Both the position numbers and the translations under genes were made by a program. Under the pieces are notes generated by a model that worked only from the letters and a program-made list of their open reading frames with translations, ran no database searches and was not told where the DNA came from. DNA of 24,592 nt from the NCBI GenBank assembly GCA_043750125.1, contig JAYVCD010000380.1, positions 1 to 24,592 of the forward strand, written 5' to 3'. Position 1 is the first letter of the stretch; every line of letters begins with the position of its first letter. Source of the stretch: Archangiaceae bacterium (GTDB taxonomy: Bacteria; Myxococcota; Myxococcia; Myxococcales; Myxococcaceae). Shown here piece by piece: positions 1,926-17,449 of this stretch.

Positions 1926-2509
1926 GGCCAGAGCATCGCCGGCCGCCTCAACAGCGCGAAGGCCTCGCGCATCGTCCAGTACGCGTGGGACCTTGCCGAG
2001 ATCCGGCGATCGGACCCGACCGGCTGGGTGCGGATTGCGACCTGCGCGAACTGCAGGCTGGCCCGTAGCAGGTGATAGCGGTCGGACACCAACAGCACTT
2101 CGGCGATCTTCCGTTGGTTGAGCAGGGGCGCGGTGAGCTGGGCATTTTCGAAAGTGCTGTGGCTCTGCTCTTCGAGCAGGCAGGCCTCGGGCGGCACCCC
2201 AAGCCTCACCGCGATGTCGCGCGCCACGCTCGCTTCGGAAGGCAGTGAGCCGCTGGCCCCTCCGCTGAAGATCACCAACGGGGCCAGGCCCTGGTGATAG
2301 AGCGCGGCCGCTTTTTCGGCCCGACCCACCAGCGCGTCGGCGGCCCTTCCGGACGGAAGCACCCGCGCGCCCAGCACGACAATCGCTGCACAGCGGGTGG
2401 GGGGTCTTGCGGTCCGCGCAAACGCGTCGACCCGATGCGCAAGCACCCCGGCCGCGCCCAGCGCTGAGGCCACGACGGCCGCCAAAAAGGTCCCGAGCTT
2501 GAAAATCAC
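1922..2509 (-). CDS. YdcF/ElyC/SanA family (DUF218) membrane-anchored protein
   Basis: GTG at 2509 overlaps the upstream stop (GTGA). N-terminal TM helix, then [41 protein letters not shown] and RE motifs. Confidence 0.9.
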
Positions 2510-3306
2510 GGAGCCGGCACCCTTCGCAGCGTCCGTCGGTGAGCCCTCAGGTCGAGGTAGATGCCCGCCGCCTGCTCTTTGGGCAGGGCGAGGTAGCGGG
2601 TCGTCGGGCTGGCGTGGGGAGGATAGGAAGGGTCCCGTTCGTCGCGGCGGGCGCGGTCGATGACCCAGGCGTGGGGCCAGCCGAGGCGCCCGTCGTCGAT
2701 CAACCCGAGCACGACTTCGTATCCGGAATGTTCCTTCACCCACGCGTGGGCCGCGGCGAGGCAGTCCGGGTTTTCTCCGCCTGGAGTGGGAGTCGCGCGG
2801 CGGGCTCCTTCCAACGAGGGAACGAGGTCGAGAGCGTTTCCGTTGCCGGTGATGGCAAGGCCTTCGGCGAAAGGGTCGGCAAACACCACCGGGCCGACGC
2901 GGCGGGAAAACCGCGAGTCCCCCAACTCGAGCTGCTGCAGCGCGCCGCCCTGGTAGTGGGCGATGAAAGGTTGGCCCAGCAGCGTGCCCTTCGCCGTCTC
3001 GCCCGCCTGGGTGATGCAGGCTTCGCCCTTCTGGCGGGTGACTTCGTCTTCCACCGCCCAACAGCCCGCCGGGCGCGCCTGGAGCAGCGACTGCGACGCC
3101 CAGAGGGTGTCGGACTTCGGGGCGACGAAGCGCTCGACCGCGCCCAGCCCCGAGCGGAAAAAATGCTGCGAGAGGTAGGTGTACTGAGCCCCGTTCTGAA
3201 TCAACCGGATTTCTCCGACCGGAACGCCTCCCAGAAAATGGACGAAGCGGTCCTCGGCTTGAATCGGGGCAGCGAGGAGGAGGACCCAGGCGAACAGAGG
3301 CATCAC
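2506..3306 (-). CDS. Secreted protein with a C-terminal transglutaminase-like (Cys-His-Asp) domain
   Basis: Signal peptide [21 protein letters not shown]...H, VVLGL, WPHAWV and RDPS occur in transglutaminase-core order. Start is 3306 (GTG) or 3303 (ATG). Confidence 0.7.
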
Positions 3307-3345: not shown

Positions 3346-6300
3346 ATGGGCAAGAGGAGGTACCTGTTCGCATTCGGACTTGGCGGGGGCCTGGCAGCGG
3401 GGCTGCTCTCAGGCGTGGTGCTGTCGATCTTCGTGCCCCTGCCCCTGACCGGTTGGGCGGTGTTGATCTGCTGCACCACCGGAAGCTTCACCGTCTTCGG
3501 CTACCTCACCTGGTTTCAATGGGCCCAGCGGCGCGCCGAACGGTTGCGGGTGCAGCTCGATCGCCTCGCCGCCGGAGACCTCACCCGCCCCACCGGCGGC
3601 GGTCGCAGCGACGACACCGAGCTTCAGCGGCTGACCATCTCTTTGCGTCGGGCGCTCGCCCAGGTGCAGCGCGTCACCCAGAGCCTTCACCGCACCAGCC
3701 GCGAGGTCGAGACCGAAGCGCGCGCGTTGCTCGAGGCCGCGCGCCGTCAGCAGTCGGCCGCCGATCGATCGCAAACCGCGGTGTCGAGCATGGGCCAGAG
3801 CTTGATCGGCGCAGGCAAGCGGGTGAACCAGCTCGAGGTCTTCGCGCAAGAGACGACCGGCGCGCTGACCGAGATGACCGAGCGAATCGAGCAGGTCGCG
3901 ACCGCGCTGCAGAAGCTCGACGGCGCCGCCCGCAGAACCAGTGAGAAGGTCGAAGCCGTTTCAAATCGCGCCGCCGGAGTCGTCTCGGCCGGAACCGTGC
4001 TCGCCGCGTTTGCGCTGCAAACCGCTGACTACGTTGCGTCGGTCGAAGGGGGAATCGATGCGGTGCGCCGCCGCGCCGAAGAGACCGGGGCCCTGGCGCG
4101 CGAAGTGACCCGCACCGCCGAGCAGGGTGAGGCGCTGGTCGCCGACAGCGTGAAGGCGATGTACCGCATCGAGGACACCGTTCAGCGCAGCATGGAATTG
4201 GTGAACGCGCTCGGGAAGAACAGCTTCGAAATCGGGCGGGTGATCGACGTCATTCAAGACATCGCCGACCAGACCAACCTGCTCGCGCTCAACGCGGCGA
4301 TCATCGCCAGCCAGGCCGGCGAGAGCGGCAAGGCCTTTGGGGTCGTCGCCGCCGAAGTCCGCAGCCTCGCCGAACGCACCGCGCGATCGACCCGCGAAAT
4401 CGGCCAGCAGATCAAGCGGGTGCGCGATGGCGTCGCGCGGGCCGTCACCCTGGTCACCGACGCCAAGCACCAGGCGTCTGCCGGAGTGGTGCAGGGCGAC
4501 AAGGCGGCGGTCGCGCTGAAGGAAATTCGCAGCATCACCCAGCGCACCTTCTCGGCCGTCGAGGCCACCGTCGCCGAGACCGCCCGACTCGAACAGCAAG
4601 GCAGCCGGGTCGTCGAGGCGAGCAAGCAGGTCTCCGAGCGCGTCGCCGAGGTCACCCGGCTCTCGTCCTCCCAACTGGACGAGGGCAAAGCGCTCGGGCG
4701 GCAGATTCAAGAGATGGCGAAGACGGCGCACGAGGCCGCCACCCAGGCCGACGCGCAGGTGAAGACCGGCCGCGAGTTGTCCGACTCGGTGCTGCGACTG
4801 ACTGCGGCGATCGACGAGATTCGGGCTGCCCAGAAGGTGCTCTCGCGCGGCGATGCCGAGATTGGGGAAGAGGTCGCCGAAGTGAGGGAAGACGCGCGGA
4901 AGGTCACCCGCATCGCTGACGGGCTCTCGCGCACCGTCGAGCAGCTGGGCCACGAAGCCGACGGGCTCGACGCTGAAGTCTTCCGTTTCAAGCTTCCGAA
5001 ACCCCGACCGGGCGGCACGTTGCACGCGGGCATTCACCGCACCAGTGAGCTGGCTCTCACCCGTGGGTTGGATCCGATCTTCACCACCGACCTGCAGCTG
5101 GCCGAGGTGTCTGCGTCGGTCTACTCCACGCTGCTGCGCTACGAGGAAGGCACGTTGGTCGCCGACCTGGCCGAGCGTTGGGATGCAGACCCGACAGCGC
5201 GCCGGTACCGCTTCTACCTGCGGCGAAACGTGTTGTTTCACGACTCGACCCCCTTCACGGCGCGGCACGTGAAGGACCACTTCGAACGGCTGCTCGACCC
5301 CAAGGTGGGCTCGCCCGACGTGGGCCTGCTCAAAGACGTCGAAGGGGCGGAAGCCTGGGGCCGGGGCGAGGCCCGGGAAGTCGTGGGAATCGAAGTGCTC
5401 GATGACCTCACGCTCGAGATTCGGCTCACCGAGCCGCGCGCCTTCTTCTTGCGGATGCTCGCCTTGCCCTCGACCGGAATCTGTCGTCGGGGCGAGGGCG
5501 GAAAGCTGCAGGGAACCGGGCCCTACCGGGTCATCGACTCGGGTCGAACCGATGCCTGGGTGCTCGAGAAAAACCCTTCCTACTACCGGGTGGGCCAGCC
5601 GCTGTTGGGGCGAATCGAGCTGCACCTGTACGCGGACCGCGCCGGCTCGCTCGCGGCGTTCCAGCGGGACGAAGTGCAGCTGGTCTCCTACCTTCACGCC
5701 GAACACCTTGCCGCCGGAGCCCTGGGCGAGCTGGCGCAGGTGGCGACCGTCTCGACGCCCTCGACGTGGTTTCTGGGCTTCAACGTCAAGCAGCCGCCCT
5801 TCGATGATCTGCGGGTGCGACGGGCGGTTCGCGCCGGGCTCGACGTGCGGGCCTTGGTCGACAAGTTTCACCCCGGAGCGAGGGTCGCGCGCTCTTTGAC
5901 TCCGCCGGGGCTGTTGGAAGTCGACCGGGTGCACGAGCCGCGCACCGACCTGTCACTGGCGCGGCAGCTGCTCGCCGAGGCCGGGCACGGCAAGCTGAAG
6001 CTGACGCTCTACTTTCCTGCGGACCGCGACACGAGCCTCGAAGACGCCGTGCTGTTCGCCCCCCTGCTCGAAGCCGGGTTGCTCGAGCTGCAACACGTCG
6101 CGCTGCCGAATGGTTATTGGGAACGGCTGCGCGAGGGGAACATCGCGGCCTTCCGCGGCAACTGGATCGCCGACTTTGCCGACCCGGACAATTTCCTCCA
6201 CTTCCTGCTCAATTCCAAAGCCCAGCACTACTACCAGGTCGGCTACTCCAACGCGGAGTTCGACCGGCTCACCGACGAAGCGCGGGTGAGCATCGACCCC

Positions 6301-6480
6301 GGACTGCGAGAGCAGCTGTACCGAAAGGCCGAGGTGATGGTGCGCGACGACTGCGTGCTCGTTCCGCTCTACCACCAGGGTTTTCACTGTGTGGCGGCGG
6401 GAACGGTGCAGGGGTTGCGGCTGCATTCGACTCCGCCGCAGGTTCGCTTCGAGTCGCTGTGGCTCGACCTCGATTCCTGA
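3346..6480 (+). CDS. Methyl-accepting chemotaxis protein (2 TM + HAMP + ~64-heptad signalling domain) fused to a C-terminal family-5 (OppA/DppA-like) solute-binding domain, 1044 aa
   Basis: ATG at 3346. Two adjacent hydrophobic helices, then HAMP ([10 protein letters not shown]...DTELQRL) and the hairpin tip [40 protein letters not shown]. From about 5010: [67 protein letters not shown]. One uninterrupted frame. Confidence 0.92.
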
Positions 6481-9570: not shown

Positions 9571-9666
9571 AGGGCCCGCGCCCTAGCACAAAGCGGGGTC
9601 GCCCCGCTCGAAGGCCATGGAACCACTGGGTGAATGGCAGGGGGGCCACCGGGCACTGAAGGATTG

Positions 9667-10308
9667 ATGCTCTCTGTAGACTCCAACGGTGCCGCAGCAG
9701 TACACGCCGCTCCCATGGCAGTTGCTGCGGAAGCCCCCGCACCCGCATCAGGAGATCTGCTCACCCGCGCCAAGGCGGGGGAACCGGCTGCGTTTCAACA
9801 GCTCTATGTGAAGCACCAGCGGCAGGTGGCCAGCCAACTGGCGTTCCTCGTTCCGCGCTCGGACCTGGAAGACACGCTGCAAGAGGTGTTCATCGAAGTC
9901 TTCCGGTCGATCAAGCGCTTCGAGGGCCGCAGCGCCTTCACCACCTGGCTGTACCGGGTCACGGTCCACGTCGCGATGAAGGCCCGCCGAAAGCAGACCC
10001 GCTCGCGCCTGGACATCGTCGAAGAGCTGCCCGACGTGGTGGACCCCGCGGCGGGTCCGGCCGAAGCCTCGCTGTCTGCCGAGCGACAGCTGCGGGTCGA
10101 AGCGCTGCTGGAAAATCTGTCGCCGAAGAAACGCGCGGTGCTGGTGATGCACGACCTGCGTGGAATGGAAGCGGCGAAGATCGCCGAAGTCCTCGACACC
10201 AACATTCTGACCGTGCGCACCCGCCTGTTCTACGCGCGGCGCGAATTCGAAAAGCTCGCGGCCGCCGATCCCGCGTTGTCCGAGTTCTTCACCGAGGCCC
10301 GCTCATGA
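9667..10308 (+). CDS. ECF (sigma-70 group 4) RNA polymerase sigma factor
   Basis: Region 2: EDTLQEVFIEVFRSIKRFEGRSAFTTWLYRVTVH. Region 4: LSPKKRAVLVMHDLRGMEAAKIAEVLDTNILTVRTRLFYARR. Start is uncertain (9634, 9667 or 9715); AAGGA precedes 9667. Confidence 0.93.
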   Translation: MLSVDSNGAAAVHAAPMAVAAEAPAPASGDLLTRAKAGEPAAFQQLYVKHQRQVASQLAFLVPRSDLEDTLQEVFIEVFRSIKRFEGRSAFTTWLYRVTVHVAMKARRKQTRSRLDIVEELPDVVDPAAGPAEASLSAERQLRVEALLENLSPKKRAVLVMHDLRGMEAAKIAEVLDTNILTVRTRLFYARREFEKLAAADPALSEFFTEARS

Positions 10309-11696
10309 GTCACCTGCCTTCCGAGCGGATCGAAGAGCTCGCTTCGTCCCAGGGTGCCGACGCGCACCTGGCCGGCTGCGCTGAGTGTCGCAAGGCCGTC
10401 GGCTCGGCGCGCGCGCGGCGGATGCTGCTGACGGGTCTGAAAGACGTGACGCTGACCGAGGCGGCCTTTCGGCGGGTCGAGGCCCGGCTGAGCAGCGAGG
10501 TGCAGGCTCCGGTTTCAGCGTGGGGACTGGTGTGGTCGCAGCTTCGAGTCAGCTGGTTGCTCGCCGCCGCGCTGGTGGGGCTGGTGGTGCTGTGGGTGGT
10601 CCCCAGCTCGACCCCGGCGGTCGTCCTACAGGCGCCGGTGACGAAAGCGATTGAGCCGAAGGTCATCGTCCGGCCCGACAACTCGGCGCAGTGGACGGCG
10701 ATGTTGGTCGAAGGAATCGTCCGCCGAAATGGGTCCGCGCTGGCCGCGGGCGAAGTCGTGCAGAAGTCCGACCGGCTCGACGCGCGAATGGGAAGGGTGG
10801 TGCTGGCCCAGGTCGGCGCCGAAGTTCAGCTCGAGCTGATCGGCGTCGCGAAGGTCGGCGGCACCGCGATGCTCAGCCTCGAGGAAGGAACGCTGGCGGT
10901 GGAGGCCCGGCCCGAGGTGTGGGTGGAAGCCGGAGGCGCCTGGGTCGTCGGCTCGGACGCCGCGTTCGTGGTGTCGCGCGCGGCCGCCGAGGTGATGGTC
11001 GAGGTGCTTCGGGGCAATGCGCGGGTCGGCTCGGACGGGGAGCTGCGCGACTCGGTGGCGCTCGTCGCTCCGCAGCGCTTGAAGCTGGGACTGCCGATCA
11101 AGCCCCCGTTCTCGCAAGTCGACCGCGCTGCTGAACCGTACCCGTTCTCGACGCTGCCCAAGCAGCCCTGGGCGCGGCTGGACGTGACGGATTTGCCGAC
11201 CGGGAGCACGTTCGATGTCGACGGGCGCCACCTGGGAACCCCGACCTCGCTGATGCTCACCGAGGGCCGCCACCGGGTGATGGCGCAGGTGCCGGGGCAG
11301 GGGAGCAAAGAGACCTGGGTGCAGCTGGTCTCGGGCCGCAACACTCTGCTGAAGCTTCCGCCCAGAAACCTCGGGCTGCAGAAAGACGAGCCGGCTCCGT
11401 CGCAGGACGCGATCGCCGAGCTGCAGAACGCGCTCAAGGATCAGCGGCCGAAGCTTCGGGCCTGCTACGAGAAATGGCTCAAGGGGAACCCGGTCGCGAT
11501 GGGCGATGTGACCCTCACGCTGTCGGTGTCGGCGAACGGAAAAGTGCTTGGGGCGCGGGTCGATGACGCGACGATTCCAGCCGAATCGGTCGACTGCCTG
11601 GTTCGCACCGGACTGCGGCTGGTGCTGCCTCCGCTGGGAAGTGAGCAGGAAATCGAGGTCCCGCTTTCCTTCACCCAGGGCAATCCGCGGCCCTGA
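10305..11696 (+). CDS. Anti-sigma factor: zf-HC2 zinc motif, TM helix, FecR-like and PEGA-like regions, AgmX/PglI-type (TonB_C-like) C-terminal domain
   Basis: ATGA-coupled to the sigma gene. HLAGCAEC (HxxxCxxC); TM WLLAAALVGLVVLWVV; LEEGTLAVE and VEVLRG.ARV (FecR-like); FDVDGRHLGTPTSLMLTEGRHRV (PEGA-like); LRACYE..L..NP...G.V.L.L.V..NGKV...DCL.....L.LP (AgmX/PglI-C). Confidence 0.8.
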   Translation: MSHLPSERIEELASSQGADAHLAGCAECRKAVGSARARRMLLTGLKDVTLTEAAFRRVEARLSSEVQAPVSAWGLVWSQLRVSWLLAAALVGLVVLWVVPSSTPAVVLQAPVTKAIEPKVIVRPDNSAQWTAMLVEGIVRRNGSALAAGEVVQKSDRLDARMGRVVLAQVGAEVQLELIGVAKVGGTAMLSLEEGTLAVEARPEVWVEAGGAWVVGSDAAFVVSRAAAEVMVEVLRGNARVGSDGELRDSVALVAPQRLKLGLPIKPPFSQVDRAAEPYPFSTLPKQPWARLDVTDLPTGSTFDVDGRHLGTPTSLMLTEGRHRVMAQVPGQGSKETWVQLVSGRNTLLKLPPRNLGLQKDEPAPSQDAIAELQNALKDQRPKLRACYEKWLKGNPVAMGDVTLTLSVSANGKVLGARVDDATIPAESVDCLVRTGLRLVLPPLGSEQEIEVPLSFTQGNPRP

Positions 11697-12123: not shown

Positions 12124-15100
12124 ATGTACTGCGAGCCCTGTCGGGTCGAGCGGTTGGGAACAGCGCGATTCTGCGTCATCTGTGGAAGCACGCTGCTGCA
12201 GCGGCCGAGGGAACAAATCGAAGCCGACCTGGCGCGGGTGCGCTGGTTGCTCGCCGAGCTACCCGAATGGGACGCGAGCCTGGTCGCCGCTCGGCCCCGG
12301 CAGTACGTGATCGAGCGGTACCGGCAGCGCGAGAAGGTCCTGCTCTGGGCGCTCGCGGCGGATGAACCGGCCCCAACAGCAGTGGCCCCGCCCTCGCCGA
12401 CCCCCGCGGTGCCGCACGTCGCCGCCGCAATGCCGCCCCCTGTCCGTGCACCGCCGCCCCCCGTCGCTGCTCCGTCGTCCCAAACCGCAGAGCCCTCCCG
12501 TTCATCCGCAGAGCCCTCCCGTTCATCCCGAGAGCAGTCGAGGGAAGAAGCCTCTCGAGCCGCAGGGCCGGGGCCGTTGCTCGAGGTCGAGCTCGAGGCG
12601 CCTTCCCTCGAAGACCGGGTGGTCCTCGAAGCCTCGAGCTGGAGCCGAATCTGGAAGCCCTTCCTCAACCAGAGCATCGGCTGGTTCATCGGCGCGTTCC
12701 TGATTCTCTCGGGCACGTTCTACCTGGTGTCCGACTCGTGGTCGGGGCTGACATCGACCCTGCGTGCGCTGGTCGTCTTCGGGCTGGCGGCGGGGTGGAC
12801 GCTCGGCTTCTCTGCGTGGGCCCAGTTCCTCTGGCGTCGCGAGGCGACGCGCGGAGCGGCCCGGGTGCTGAAGCTGATTGGCGCCGCGATGGCCCCTCTG
12901 GCTCCCTTTGCGGTGGGGCCGGTGGCGAAGGACTCCCCGCTGTTGGTGACGGCGCTGGTGCTGGCGTGGAGCGCCGTCGCCGCCGTGCTCGCCCTGGGAG
13001 TGACCCGAGATCTGCAAAAGGTCGGGCTGCGAAATGTCCCGCTGGCGATGGCGGCGTGTGCGGCAATGATGGGCCTCGCCCCGATGATCGTCGGGTTTCA
13101 CGGCGCTGCGCTGTGGCTGATGGTGATTCCCGTCGGTCTGCTCTGGGCCAATTCGCGCAGTGGAGCGGGGCTCACGGAACGAACGCGCGGCTGTTCGCCT
13201 TCCTCGCTCCGCTCTACCTGGCGGCGATCTTCGCAACCCGGCTGCATTACGCGCTGATCGCCGACGCGCTCAACTGGGGCACCTGGGCCCCGTTTCTCGC
13301 GCTCTGTCTGACGGCGGCGCTCGAGCTGCGAGCTCCGCTGGGCCCGGACGGTCGGCCCCACTGGGAACGCGCCGCTGATCCGATTGCGATTCTGATTGTC
13401 GGCGGGCAGCTGGGCTTGATGGCCTGGGCCCTGCTCGGAGCGGCTCGGCCTTCTTCGTCACCAGTGTGATCGGCGCGCACACCTGCTTTCGCCTGCTTCG
13501 GGGCAGCAGCTCGCCCCGCGCCGCGCGATGGATCTACGCCCTCTACTTCTTCACCTGTTTCGCCTGGCAGACCTGCGGCCAGTTGATCCCCGGTGCGATT
13601 AAAGAGCTCATCCAGCAGCTCAAGACCAGCCTGGGCTACCCGCCTCAGGGCGCGCTGCCGTTCGCCTACAACGCGATCTACGCCGCGCTGTTCGTCATCG
13701 CCGGCGCGCTGCTGGCGGTGAAGTGGCTCAAGGGCAATCAGCGCGCGTGGGCCGAGCCGCTGCTGCGCTGTACGTGGATCACCAGCGCGCTGACCGTCGC
13801 GCTCGCCGTTTCCTCGCTCGGCACCGACACCCGGCCGGCGATGATCAGCGTCCCGTTGCTGATGGCGCTGTGCCTTGGGTTGGGCTTGTGGCTCGATCGC
13901 CCGGCGTTCACCCGCACCGGCTCGGCCCTGGCAATCGCGTTTGCCGCGACGCTGATGGCGTGGACGGGCCCCGAGGCGGGCGCGCTTCCGGTGGCGATCC
14001 TCGCGCTGCTGTTGGCGGGAGTGTCGATCTTCTCCCTCGAGTCGCACCGGGTGCCCTTGTCGTGGGCCGGCTACAGCCTCGTCGCGTTCGCGGTCGGCCT
14101 GGCGTGGGTGATGCCGGGAAACGCGGGGCAGGTGTTGGCGCTGGGAATCGCGTTCGCCGCCGCCTGGCTCATCGGCCGAAACGTCGACCTTCCGCTCGCG
14201 CAAGATGCTTCGTGGGTCATCCCCGCGATTGTCGTCGCGCGGGCGATGGCGCTGTGGGCGCCGACGTATGCCGCGCCGGCAATTGCACTCACCGCGCTGG
14301 TCCTGGCGCTGCTGGCCCGGAGCAAAGGACGGCTGCGTCACGCGGAAGCGGCGTCGGCGTTGGCGGCGCTGGTGGGCCCGGTGTGGCAAGGGGTCAGCCA
14401 GCTGTCGACCGGCGCACCGGTCTGGCTCGGAGCCGTGCTGCTCACTTCCGCCGCCGCGCTGGCGGTGGGAGCTCGCCGCACCAGGCCTGAGCCGACCGCC
14501 GACTGGCGCGACGCACTGGCAATGGTTTTCGGAACGCTGGCGCTCTTGCCGGTCATTCCGGAATTTCAAACGTGGACCGCCTGGACCCCCGAGTCGGCGG
14601 CATTCGCGTACGCGGCGCTGGGCCTGACCGCTTCGATCTGGGCCGCCCGCTTCGGTCGCAGTTGGCGCCCGGCGTTGCTGGCGACGCTCAGCATTCTGTT
14701 CGCCACGGGGGTCTGCCTTTACGCGCAGGACACTCACGCCTCTCCTGAATGGGTGGCGGCCATTTGTGCAGTCGGCGTGCTGCTGACGATGCGGGCCCTG
14801 CTGCCGTCAATCTCGGTGCCGATCGCCACGGTGTTCGCGCTGCGGGCCACGGACGGAAACCACACCGCGCTGCTGGCCCTCGCGGTCGGGCTGTCGGTGC
14901 TCGCGCTGTTCGAAGACCTGGACTTCACCTGGACCAGCATCCTCGGCAACCGCTCGGTCGCGTGGGCGGCGAGCCTCTCGTCGTTGGTCGTGCTGGGCCT
15001 GCTCGTCGTCCCGCTCAGGTTCTTCATCTTGCTGCGGTTCTCGGCCCCGTACGACGGACACCTGCAGCCCTACCTGATCATCGCGGCGGTGCTCCCCTTG

Positions 15101-17449
15101 TTGTGGGTGCGCGCGACCCGCTCAGGGATCCTCGCAATCGCCCTGGCTCCCCTGGTCCTGGTGGCCGGAGATCCCTGGATTGTCGCGGGCGTGCTGATCG
15201 CGCTGACGCACGGAGTGGAACGGGTGGCCCCGCTGCGCTCACTGCTCTTCGGGGCAAAAGATGCGCAGCGCCTGAGGTCCCAATTCGCGCCCTGGGTCCT
15301 GGGCGGAGCGGCGATCATCGGCGCGCTGTCGGTGCTGGAAGGCGGCTTGGGTTTGCCCTGGGCGCTGTTGATGCTGCTGGCCGCCAGCGAGCTGCTCGCG
15401 TTCCGCTTCGTCGCCGCGGCGCTGTTCTCGGTGTCCGCCCACGGGCTGGCGCAGATTCTCACCCCGGTGCTGATCGGCCTCGCCTTCCTCGAGCGCTTCA
15501 TTCCGGGGCTCGTCTCGAAAGTGCTCGGCGCGAAACCGCACCCCCACACGGTCCCCGCGGCCGTCCTCTCGGCGATCGCTCTGGCGGGCTTCGTTGCGGC
15601 CAGCGCCCCGGCCGACCCCACGTCTTCGGCCTGGCTGCTCGCCGCGACGCTGGCGGCCGGCGCAGTGCTGCTCAACCAGCGCTGGCTCGTTGCCGCCGCG
15701 GTGGTCGCTGCGGCCTGTCAAATCTCTCGTCCCGGGCTGCTTGCGCACTGCGGGTGGGTCGCCTTCGGTGCCGCCGCGCTCGCCGCGATGCTCAGAATCG
15801 AGTCGCTGCGCGAGCGGGTTCGGGCGACGTTTGCCCGGCTGAATTGTCCGCTCGATGGGGACTTCGGCTCTGCCTTCTGGTTGGGCTCGGCGATCGTGGC
15901 GTCCACCGCGCTGCTGGTGGCGGGCCCGCATTCCGCGTTGCTCGCGCCGCTGTTGGCGACCGGCGCGCTGCTGCTGCTCACTGCGCATCAGACCGAAGTC
16001 ATCGCCGCGGCGGTGCTCGCAACGGCGCTGGTATTCGTGCTCATTCCCCTGCCCGAAGGGGCAGCGGTGCTGGGATCGATCGGCTTCACCCTCTGTCTGG
16101 GCGGCGCCCTGCTCGAAGGTCGACACCGCTCGGCGTTGACCTGGCATCACGCGGGTTGGGCGCTGTCCGGGCTCGCGCTCGCAGGAGCCCACTCGCTTCA
16201 TCACCCTGCGACCGTGATCGCCTGGGGCTTTGCTGCCGGTTGTGCGGTGGTGATGGCCCACCGCAATCCGGCGCTCGAGTGGGTCCGGTGGTTGGGGCTG
16301 ATTGCTGCGGCGCACGTCGGCCTGTTCTACCTGGGCCTCGCGCTGGCGACTGGAGCGCCGCGCGAGCTGATCTTGCCGTGGGTCGCGAGCGCGTCGTTGA
16401 TTCTGGGAACCGTCGCGCTTCGAGGGGCGAAGTCGAGCCAGCGGGTGACGCAGCGGTTGGCCTCGGCGAACGGTCTGTTCTGCCTGGGCATGTTCGAGCT
16501 TTGCCTCGGGCTGATGACGCTCAACGGCGGACACAGCCGCGAAGCCGGGGTCGCGCTGTTGGCCGTGGGGCTCGCCGTCTGGGCGCTGGGCTCGCGGGTC
16601 CTGGAGGAAGACGACGCGCTCTGTGCCGCATTCGTCGGGCTGTTGCTTCCCCTGGGCTTCGTCGCCATTCGCCGTCTGGCTTTTGGCGCCGGGCCCGACG
16701 CGGTCGAGTCGCTGGTCGCGCTGGTGGCAGGCGCGGGGGTCGCAGGGCTCGCGCGCGCACTCGACGGGCGGAGCCTGAAAAAATCGGCCCTCGTCGCGCG
16801 CTCGTTCGCGTTCTGGTGGCCGCTGGCGGGGTTGGTCGCGGCTCCCTGGAATACGCCGTGGACGTTGTGCCTGTTGCTGCTCGCCCAGTCGGCGCACTTC
16901 GCCGTAGTGGCTCGCCTGGGCGCGATGAAGCGCCCGGCAGCGTTGCTGTCTACCGTCGCCTTCAACGCCGCGATGGTGTTCGCCTTCGTCGCCGCCGGGT
17001 CCCACAGCGCCGAGTACCTGTTGATTCCGTTCGGGCTTTCGTTGCTGGTGCTGCTGAAGGTCTTCGAAGCCGACCTGGCGGAAAGCTCCCGAACCCAGCT
17101 GCGTGCGATCGCGGTGACGCTCGTCTACGGAGCGGCAGCGTTCCGCCCGCTGACCTTCGATACGACCTTCGCCCTGTGGGTCTGCGTCGCCCTCTGCGTC
17201 GCCGGCGTCGCGTTGGGAATCGTCCTTCGGGTTCGCAGCTACGTGTACCTGGGTACCGCCTTCATGATCACCACCCTGGTCGCGAACCTGGTCCGCTACG
17301 GGGTGCGGGAGCCGCGCATGGGCGCGCTGTTCCTCTCGGGCCTGGGCCTGGCCGTCGTCGGCTTCATGGTGTTGGTCACCACCCGCCGCACCGAGCTCGT
17401 CGCGCGGTACCAGCGGGCTCGGGCGATGCTGCAAAACTGGGAAGGGTAG
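12124..17449 (+). CDS. Very large polytopic membrane protein (~1775 aa when restored) with an N-terminal zinc ribbon, interrupted by two one-base frameshifts (~13190 and ~13447)
   Basis: Starts with CEPC...CVIC and a Pro-rich linker, then W..IWKPFLNQSIGWFIGAFLILSGTFY. Hydrophobic coding runs through the frame of 12124, then the frame of ORF 12738-13469 (LFAFLAPLYLAAIF...), then the frame of ORF 13466-17449 (AFFVTSVIG...). Each switch is one missing base. Dozens of TM segments, ending R..LQNWEG. Confidence 0.8.
12485..12545 (+). repeat. Intragenic REP-like copy with a 21-bp tandem duplication
   Basis: CCGCAGAGCCCTCCCGTTCAT occurs at 12485-12505 and 12506-12526. TCCCGTTCATCCCGAGAGCAGTCGAGGGA at 12517-12545 is 27/29 identical to the reverse complement of 6506-6534. 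Confidence 0.85.

Follow-up and report, generated by a model that had tools for sequence, protein, structure and literature searches.

A McpK-like chemoreceptor of Archangiaceae bacterium with a predicted cytoplasmic family-5 solute-binding domain behind its signaling hairpin

The receptor gene and its parts

The stretch of DNA analyzed here, hereafter the window, comprises 24,592 nucleotides of contig JAYVCD010000380.1 from Archangiaceae bacterium (assembly GCA_043750125.1). Its forward strand carries a gene for a methyl-accepting chemotaxis protein (MCP) in which a complete family-5 solute-binding protein (SBP) domain follows the signaling hairpin. The gene is a single open reading frame (ORF) of 1044 codons without a stop (Table 1), in which Pfam recovers both MCPsignal (PF00015; residues 250–437, E = 2.9e-33, 115.6 bits against a gathering cut-off of 34.6) and SBP_bac_5 (PF00496; residues 604–959, E = 1.7e-63, 215.4 bits against a gathering cut-off of 32.4). 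An earlier reading of this DNA, made from its letters without database searches (the sequence-only reading), had placed both domains in one frame, and the stop-free translation together with the Pfam matches bears this out. The frame is also open upstream of position 3346, as is usual at 68% G+C; the start at that position is supported by the N-terminus MG.RRYL, which homologues share. In NCBIfam, likeness to the models of OppA, DppA, NikA, SapA and GsiB, and to a number of chemoreceptor models, stayed below threshold.

The N-terminal anchor is outlined alike by the Kyte–Doolittle profile, in which residues 6–57 form the sole strongly hydrophobic block, and by an AlphaFold2 (AF2) model of the monomer built from a 50-sequence alignment (mean predicted local distance difference test score, pLDDT, 83; predicted template modeling score, pTM, 0.62), which has helices at residues 4–29 and 34–76 with a loop of four residues between them. 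The two agree with the earlier view of two transmembrane (TM) helices parted by few residues, with no periplasmic sensor. By the positive-inside rule, the positive charges that follow the second TM helix (QRRAERLR) would place both termini in the cytoplasm. The segment behind the anchor is called HAMP-like because it combines an AAGDLT motif with a predicted helix–loop–helix and with an alignment to a paralogue on contig C239 of the same genome; the matching segment of that paralogue is a Pfam HAMP domain, and the alignment extends down to residue 68 of the window protein.

Beyond this segment the chain is predicted to run out and back as two antiparallel arms of matching length: the C-terminal arm measures 223 residues from the tip glutamate, residue 326, to K549, and the N-terminal arm starts at about residue 101–105, giving approximately 32 heptads per arm. 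These measurements reproduce the tip position near 326, the roughly 222 residues to the hairpin end and the total of about 64 heptads proposed earlier. The tip departs from the usual AIEAARAGE by an Ile and a Gln, and its mean pairwise identity among 25 homologues is 0.86. The confidence of the AF2 model falls symmetrically at residues 191–210 and 442–460, approximately 125 residues to each side of the tip; these Gly-containing stretches (window positions 3916–3975 and 4669–4725) may form a hinge that splits the long hairpin into two modules.

The SBP extends from about residue 553 or 558 to 1041, approximately 490 residues, as delimited by the SBP profile and by the AF2 model, which has a mixed alpha/beta domain at 558–1040 (pLDDT about 90). 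With Pfam concurring, the family-5 domain of about 490 residues first noticed in the translation is confirmed. The best sequence matches in the PDB, namely the peptide-binding protein 8upi (1.1e-35), OppA3, OppA, DppE, DppA and MppA, span about residues 25–489 of 523-residue chains, i.e., nearly the whole mature SBP, and identity to any solved SBP is 19–25%. Foldseek gives target-normalized TM-scores of 0.78–0.84 over approximately 500–530 columns for DppA, YliB, OppA, MppA, NikA and others, with NikA, GbpA (glutathione), AgaA (agropinic acid), a sialic-acid binder and Aapf among the near-equal matches; these scores are too alike for a ligand class to be picked from the fold. In the pocket, compared by sequence alignment, R937, W940 and D943 fall opposite chain residues 413, 416 and 419 of OppA (9rd1_A), of which we take R413 to bind the peptide carboxylate, W416 to stack on the backbone and D419 to bind the alpha-amino group. 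Across 50 family members D943 is kept in 47 and W940 in 49.

On which side of the membrane this domain lies depends on what intervenes between it and the hairpin. Besides the block at 6–57, the only hydropathy peak of at least 1.5 in the window protein is at residues 208–228 (1.53), inside the N-terminal arm, and no 19-residue Kyte–Doolittle window reaches 1.2 between residues 437 and 604; the SBP has no export signal, there being no hydrophobic segment ahead of it. In a survey of 50 family members (20–87% identity), hydrophobic segments are confined to the first 60 or so residues in 47 and are lacking altogether in three; in 49 the stretch from the post-tip region to the SBP core is free of hydrophobic windows, the other member having a weak peak of 1.52–1.65. 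Myxococcus homologues show a weak peak at about position 352 (1.57–1.66), likewise within the hairpin; neither this peak nor that at 208–228 is conserved across the family. The hairpin, which binds CheA/CheW, has to lie in the cytoplasm, and an external SBP would therefore require a TM helix after the hairpin. Since no hydrophobic segment separates the two, a cytoplasmic, C-terminal placement of the complete SBP is well supported by the predicted topology, and the earlier view that there is neither a third TM helix nor a signal sequence accords with the hydropathy of the window protein and of 49 of the 50 members. Exported stand-alone SBP relatives (31–36% identity) have a signal or lipoprotein peptide followed by the same GGTL start, which suggests that the fusion replaced the export signal with the receptor.

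Table 1. Predicted and observed features of the receptor gene, with its divergent neighbor; positions refer to the window.
Feature	Positions	Strand	Basis
McpK-like chemoreceptor gene (1044 aa and stop)	3346..6480	+	uninterrupted ORF; MCPsignal and SBP_bac_5 share the frame; full-length single-frame homologues without internal stops
Predicted TM helix 1, residues ~4–29, after K3-R4-R5	3355..3432	+	hydropathy block 6–57; AF2 helix 4–29
Predicted TM helix 2, residues ~34–58; inter-TM loop of residues 30–33 only	3445..3519	+	hydropathy and AF2
Divergent HAMP-like segment, residues ~59–104; AAGDLT motif, connector 77–87	3520..3657	+	AF2 helix–loop–helix; G77 and L79 nearly invariant; aligns with the Pfam HAMP region of C239
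Hairpin N-arm, residues ~105–323; low-confidence stretch 191–210	3658..4314	+	AF2 helices 88–196 and 200–323; gapless 450-aa alignment with C239
Hairpin tip, residues 324–328, Glu326	4315..4329	+	AF2 tip; most conserved part of the protein
Hairpin C-arm, residues 329–548; low-confidence stretch 442–460 mirrors 191–210	4330..4989	+	AF2 helices 329–443 and 459–545; end coincides with the C239 end
Conserved linker K549–G557 (F-R-F-K-L-P-x-P-R-x-G-G)	4990..5016	+	at least 90% of 50 sequences retain F548, P551, G556 and G557
Complete family-5 (cluster C) solute-binding domain, residues 558–1041	5017..6468	+	Pfam; PDB sequence matches; Foldseek; pLDDT ~90
Putative pocket motif R937-x2-W940-x-A-D943-x2-D946-P-D948-x-F950	6154..6195	+	aligned to OppA 9rd1_A
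Divergent 266-aa protein with signal-peptide-like N-terminus	2506..3306	-	sole recurrent neighbor; ~40 bp from the receptor gene

Point of fusion and distribution of the architecture

The point at which the SBP was joined to the receptor is indicated by a paralogue. MCPsignal scores above the Pfam cut-off at 14 loci of the genome, and residues 101–560 of the window protein were compared with the other 13 frames. That on C239 (24292–26394, minus strand) aligns without a gap over 450 residues, window residues 101–550, and the alignment ends at its own stop codon. It encodes a 700-residue orphan MCP, McpJ-like, with an N-terminal sensor region, Pfam HAMP at 205–252 and MCPsignal at 400–581. The unusual tip NAAIIA.QAGE is common to the two proteins, the other receptors of the genome being AIEAARAGE-like. 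From tip to stop the paralogue measures 224 residues, or 32.0 heptads; nine of the other twelve receptors measure 140–143 residues (20 heptads), and the remaining three 155, 160 and 202, the last in a frame that contains a second MCPsignal match further on. Hence, the paralogue is like the window protein in its gapless hairpin, tip and arm length, but unlike it in having a conventional N-terminal region and in stopping exactly where the SBP starts. The approximately 32 heptads per arm (223–227 residues from the tip to the helix end or SBP start, equal to C239) fit the length of the class reportedly termed 64H in the scheme of Alexander and Zhulin.

The C239 alignment and the stop at the fusion point together indicate that the SBP joined a hairpin of 64-heptad length precisely at its native C-terminal end, which is level with the HAMP-like segment. 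The arm lengths and the C239 end point thereby support the earlier proposal that the SBP is attached at the membrane-proximal end of the returning helix near HAMP. As its hairpin length matches that of C239, a McpJ-like receptor, rather than the 40- or 44-heptad ones, is the likely array partner, and a C239-type receptor could represent both the ancestral form and that partner.

Conservation and spacing both single out the junction. In the 50-sequence alignment the mean pairwise identity is 0.55 in the linker, 0.37 in the SBP, 0.30–0.33 in the hairpin arms and 0.23 in the TM region; a further set of values gives 0.60 for the SBP, 0.57–0.67 for the arms and 0.42 for the TM region. The SBP is thus conserved about as well as the arms, and conservation is lowest in the TM region. 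The geometry was measured in 282 proteins with one SBP5 domain, a biased sample gathered by similarity to two queries, of which 232 have an upstream MCP tip. The distance from tip to SBP is 225–227 residues in 215 of these 232 fused proteins, and exactly 227 in 178; a hydrophobic N-terminus is present in 205 of the 215. In 15 others the distance is 138–150 residues, and none of them has a hydrophobic N-terminus; two proteins are outliers. The short, Bacillota-type forms (approximately 800–830 residues) thus have the length of the 40-heptad class and are fully soluble, consisting of the hairpin and the SBP with no further domain.

Homologues show that the fusion is genuine. Among the best 120 of 776 matches in the protein database, nearly all are 1036–1052 residues long (three are partial, 700–909 residues) and all have both Pfam domains; the close homologues among them come from Myxococcus, Corallococcus, Pyxidicoccus and Archangium, with a full-length identity of 57% to 1047-residue proteins of named Myxococcus species. 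Of 41 related genomes sampled, 26 contain a match, namely 22 of 24 from the same family, and one of one and two of three from two other families of the order (f2 and f5), with no match in the six further families of the order sampled; the 31 matched places are all free of stops. When 151 genomes were sampled evenly across the phylum, full-length matches appeared in 20 of the 21 that belong to the same family and in the single genome of another family of the class (f10). Matches to the hairpin only, followed by a stop and thus of C239 type, recur in families f7 (4/9 genomes) and f12 (13/18), where the fusion was not found. Five single-contig genomes (G008, G012, G149, G176 and G180) hold the single frame intact, and because dozens of independent assemblies hold it too, misassembly is excluded. 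No stop or frameshift near 4990–5010 and no split into separate genes, on either of which the sequence-only reading would have turned, was seen in the stop-free frames of the homologues, and its surmise that other myxobacteria share the fusion proved right throughout the Myxococcaceae and beyond.

The architecture also reaches other phyla. An exhaustive search of 50%-identity representatives yielded about 35 full-length fused forms with identities as low as 24%, and fused forms at 24–47% identity are among these representatives. Relatives of one distant member, P0138, are labeled Acidobacteriota, Thermoanaerobaculia and Pyrinomonadaceae, and short forms are labeled Alkaliphilus and Symbiobacteriaceae (Bacillota), that of Alkaliphilus metalliredigens being annotated as a methyl-accepting chemotaxis transducer. 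A protein atlas holds three clusters with both domains in 100% of their members; the phylum most common among the members is Myxococcota in one cluster, Acidobacteriota in another and Bacillota in the third. A profile search of genome contigs with distant fused members returned 79 loci, all of them ordinary MCPs matching the query before residue 566; the patterns used included the universal MCP tip.

The same search brought up relatives of the SBP outside chemoreceptors. Many proteins of 1500–2843 residues among the 50%-identity representatives have two or four SBP5 domains, and 72 in the collected set have two. A Pfam scan of 17 matches of non-MCP length (735–2843 residues) found Pkinase with AAA_16 in two, AAA_16 alone in two, BTAD with AAA_16 in one, a DyP peroxidase in one and CARDB in one; two others also have MCPsignal (an 827-residue MCP–SBP5 form, and P0248 with two MCPsignal and two SBP5 domains), and the rest have SBP5 only. 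The nearest non-MCP SBP5 domains, at 30–33% identity, belong to the Pkinase–AAA_16, BTAD–AAA_16 and AAA_16 proteins. P0165, P0173, P0158, P0167 and P0140 are large cytoplasmic proteins of this kind, in which a Ser/Thr kinase and/or an AAA_16 STAND ATPase (one with BTAD) accompanies two or four tandem SBP_bac_5 domains. Thus, STAND-type tandem-SBP5 proteins hold the closest non-MCP relatives of the window SBP and are cytoplasmic by architecture, but they couple the domain to another signaling module and carry it in tandem copies; we know of no characterization of them, although no literature search was aimed at these proteins. In a quick, unrooted maximum-likelihood tree of 56 domains, eight exported proteins lie on one side of a branch with support 85, MCP-fused and tandem domains are intermixed, and the MCP forms without TM helices are sister to kinase-type tandems (99).

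McpK and the weighing of its possible roles

The architecture has a catalogued representative in Myxococcus xanthus. Table 1 of Moine et al. 2014 lists McpK (MXAN_6456, ABF92748) with a solute-binding domain, three TM helices and no HAMP; the authors place it in phylogenetic group 1 with DifA, McpB, McpJ and Mcp7 and, with DifA, in class 44H, proposed to signal to Dif (PMC3945109). As entered in that table, McpK matches the window protein in architecture and length (PMC3945109), and this match, together with the genus and with ABF92748 known by its description, suggests that the two are orthologues. The novelty that had been implied for the fusion was, therefore, overstated: McpK with its solute-binding domain has been in print since 2014 and databases name both domains. 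The window protein adds a new member to a receptor family that is already catalogued but has gone unstudied. Sections 7–9 and Table 1 of Moine et al. contain no discussion of the topology of McpK or the role of its SBP (PMC3945109), and literature searches, with supplementary files outside their scope, found no functional study of the MCP–SBP5 architecture.

The reading that we favor, with some reserve, is that this probable McpK orthologue senses a cytoplasmic, probably peptide-like ligand through C-terminal input. Briefly, it would work as follows. The two-helix hairpin would anchor the protein in the inner membrane with only about four residues facing the periplasm. The HAMP-like segment would lead into the long antiparallel hairpin, whose returning helix would end level with that segment. 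There, the short conserved linker would join it to an SBP in mature form, with the receptor in place of a signal peptide. One SBP per subunit would thus lie in the cytoplasm directly under the membrane and act as the receptor's sensor. Closure of this Venus flytrap on a small cytoplasmic ligand would alter the packing or shift the register of the C-terminal helix, and so control CheA at the tip and, through it, the receiving Che pathway. The most likely ligand would be a short peptide or some other compound bearing a free amino group, as suggested by the retained OppA-type Arg/Trp/Asp motif and by the peptide binders among the top fold matches.

Several observations weigh against this reading or against parts of it. 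Its core, a ligand-sensing role, is deduced from sequence. R937 is kept in only 31 of the 50 sequences, and the W..AD..DP.NF motif, found in family 5 generally, is weak evidence for a specific ligand. The SBP was placed relative to the HAMP-like segment by deduction from arm lengths, the AF2 model being a monomer. The HAMP assignment made earlier is favored by the helix–loop–helix, the AAGDLT motif and the paralogue alignment, but Pfam HAMP was not detected in the window protein at E ≤ 1 and was found in only two of 25 close homologues (best 1.7e-5). The tree shows mixing of fused and tandem domains, not its direction, as it lacks an outgroup and its rows were picked by similarity. The three TM helices and class 44H given in Table 1 of Moine et al. 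conflict with the two TM helices and the 64-heptad length found here by hydropathy and by measuring the arms; the third TM helix is probably the hairpin peak near position 352. In that paper mcpK is neither in the list of mutants defective in S-motility nor in that of mutants without a defect, and McpK fused to green fluorescent protein (McpK-GFP) gave a weak, diffuse signal in vegetative cells and is not among the ten clearly localized fusions (PMC3945109). From this, the expression of McpK may be low.

These points bear unequally on the alternatives. That the SBP binds no small molecule and instead serves as a structural, oligomerization, localization or protein-docking module, with input arriving via the membrane anchor or partners, we consider unlikely. 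Input through the anchor or partner proteins has been proposed for DifA-like receptors, which have no periplasmic domains. Such a role would suit the lack of any ligand on record for a McpK-type SBP, the variability of R937 in distant members, a retained motif that is a fold-wide signature, the diffuse McpK-GFP signal in the fusions described by Moine et al. (PMC3945109), and the tandem SBP5 copies of the STAND proteins, which could themselves be scaffolds. It sits less well with the retention of the whole bilobed fold, with the presence in 47 of 50 members, across three phyla, of the Asp aligned to the amino-group-binding Asp of OppA, and with the soluble Bacillota forms, which have nothing besides the hairpin but the SBP; moreover, the TM region, being the least conserved part, offers no hint of a sensor there. 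Somewhat less probable again is that the SBP is a true cytoplasmic sensor of a non-peptide, such as nickel or a metallophore, glutathione, heme, an opine, sialic acid, an oligosaccharide or autoinducer 2 (AI-2). The near-equal fold scores of NikA, GbpA, AgaA, the sialic-acid binder and Aapf, and the low identity to any solved SBP, leave room for it, as does the link of the cytoplasmic SgrR to sugar-phosphate stress, the match of the SgrR model to the window protein being weak (NCBIfam, E 0.0038). Against this, the best sequence matches are the peptide binders 8upi, OppA3, OppA, DppA and MppA, and equivalents of R413, W416 and D419 of OppA are present.

The two remaining alternatives question the arrangement itself. 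A cryptic third TM helix or an odd topology could put the SBP outside the cytoplasm as an ordinary periplasmic sensor, and here the three TM helices of the published table (PMC3945109) and the weak peaks at 208–228 and near 352 would be the grounds. Both peaks, however, lie inside the hairpin, before or within MCPsignal, and a TM helix there would expose the CheA/CheW-binding tip to the cell exterior; in 49 of 50 members the stretch from hairpin end to SBP holds nothing hydrophobic, and some members have no TM helix at all. We regard this topology as very improbable. An assembly or frameshift error that joined an MCP gene to an adjacent SBP gene has in its favor only the unusual architecture and the draft state of the genome (460 contigs), and it is hardly credible given the same stop-free frame in the five single-contig genomes and in dozens of independent assemblies and the conservation of the linker.

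Gene surroundings, related systems and significance

By gene neighborhood, the receptor gene is an orphan. The window has 50 ORFs of at least 150 residues; 27 of them were scanned, and none of these belongs to a che or ABC-transporter family, so the earlier statement that the window lacks che genes and an ATP-binding cassette (ABC) permease or ATPase holds within these 27. The genome-wide scan found no further MCPsignal or CheW match on the receptor's contig; all 26 CheW-domain matches and the genome's only two other SBP_bac_5 genes are on other contigs. In 12 related loci the one recurrent neighbor is unrelated: the divergent gene for a 266-residue protein, which recurs in seven of the 12 and is directly upstream and divergent in six. 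This protein matches nothing in Pfam at E ≤ 1; a transglutaminase-like Cys-His-Asp core near its C-terminus was a by-eye impression to which no Pfam match corresponds, and we make no claim of it.

Further along the window, an ECF-type sigma factor (Sigma70_r2/r4_2) is encoded at 9634–10308 on the forward strand, its stop overlapping the start of a 463-residue ORF at 10305–11696 (forward strand) that has only faint zf-HC2 and PEGA matches; the two look like a sigma/anti-sigma pair. At 13466–17449, also on the forward strand, lies an ORF of up to 1327 residues, very hydrophobic and apparently polytopic, without a Pfam family at E ≤ 1e-4. It probably explains the strongly negative AT skew at 13–17 kb, and long ORFs in other frames or on the opposite strand around it look like high-GC artefacts.

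Folds of periplasmic binding proteins are known as cytoplasmic ligand sensors in SgrR, which has a family-5 domain, and in LacI/GalR and LysR types, but there the output is DNA binding and not a chemoreceptor hairpin. In Escherichia coli, DppA signals to the MCP Tap (PMC8050422), likewise a family-5 SBP that supplies an MCP with its ligand signal; however, DppA is a protein of its own in the periplasm and docks on an N-terminal periplasmic domain, whereas the window SBP is fused, predicted to be cytoplasmic, and placed after the hairpin. A review of SBP signaling treats SBPs as extracytosolic partners, and the words fused and domain architecture are absent from its text (PMC8050422). Sensor domains after the MCP hairpin are on record, namely PilZ in Azospirillum Tlp1 and Azorhizobium Cbp1 and CZB in Helicobacter TlpD (PMC3604760, PMC6454048, PMC13001251). 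The input domain of these receptors has the same position as in the window protein but is small, about 100–150 residues, and serves cyclic di-GMP or zinc; that of the window protein is a bilobed, transporter-type receptor of 490 residues.

We also put forward a broader proposal, which we hold more tentatively than the role of the single receptor. McpK-type receptors of Myxococcota, Acidobacteriota and Bacillota may form a cross-phylum chemoreceptor class that monitors the cell's own pool of small peptides or related amines via a complete transporter-type SBP, set at a fixed helical register on the C-terminal end of the hairpin. Their C-terminal input would bypass the membrane and HAMP, and their SBP5 module, exchanged with STAND ATPase and Ser/Thr kinase proteins, might be a general intracellular sensor cassette.

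Chemoreceptor input is known mostly for N-terminal periplasmic or PAS-type domains that act via the membrane and HAMP. Here, a Venus-flytrap domain of 55 kDa sits on the returning helix, its spacing across phyla constant to within two residues, with soluble variants that have no other domain. The family would thus offer a natural test case for how a signal enters the four-helix bundle from its C-terminal side. As the SBP domain can be expressed alone, the question of its ligand is directly approachable. The link to STAND kinases suggests that transporter binding proteins serve more widely, in ways as yet unstudied, as cytoplasmic sensors. If the proposal is true, an orphan receptor of the model organism M. 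xanthus would gain a function, and myxobacterial McpK-type receptors could tie the nutritional or proteolytic state of the cell to development or surface behavior.

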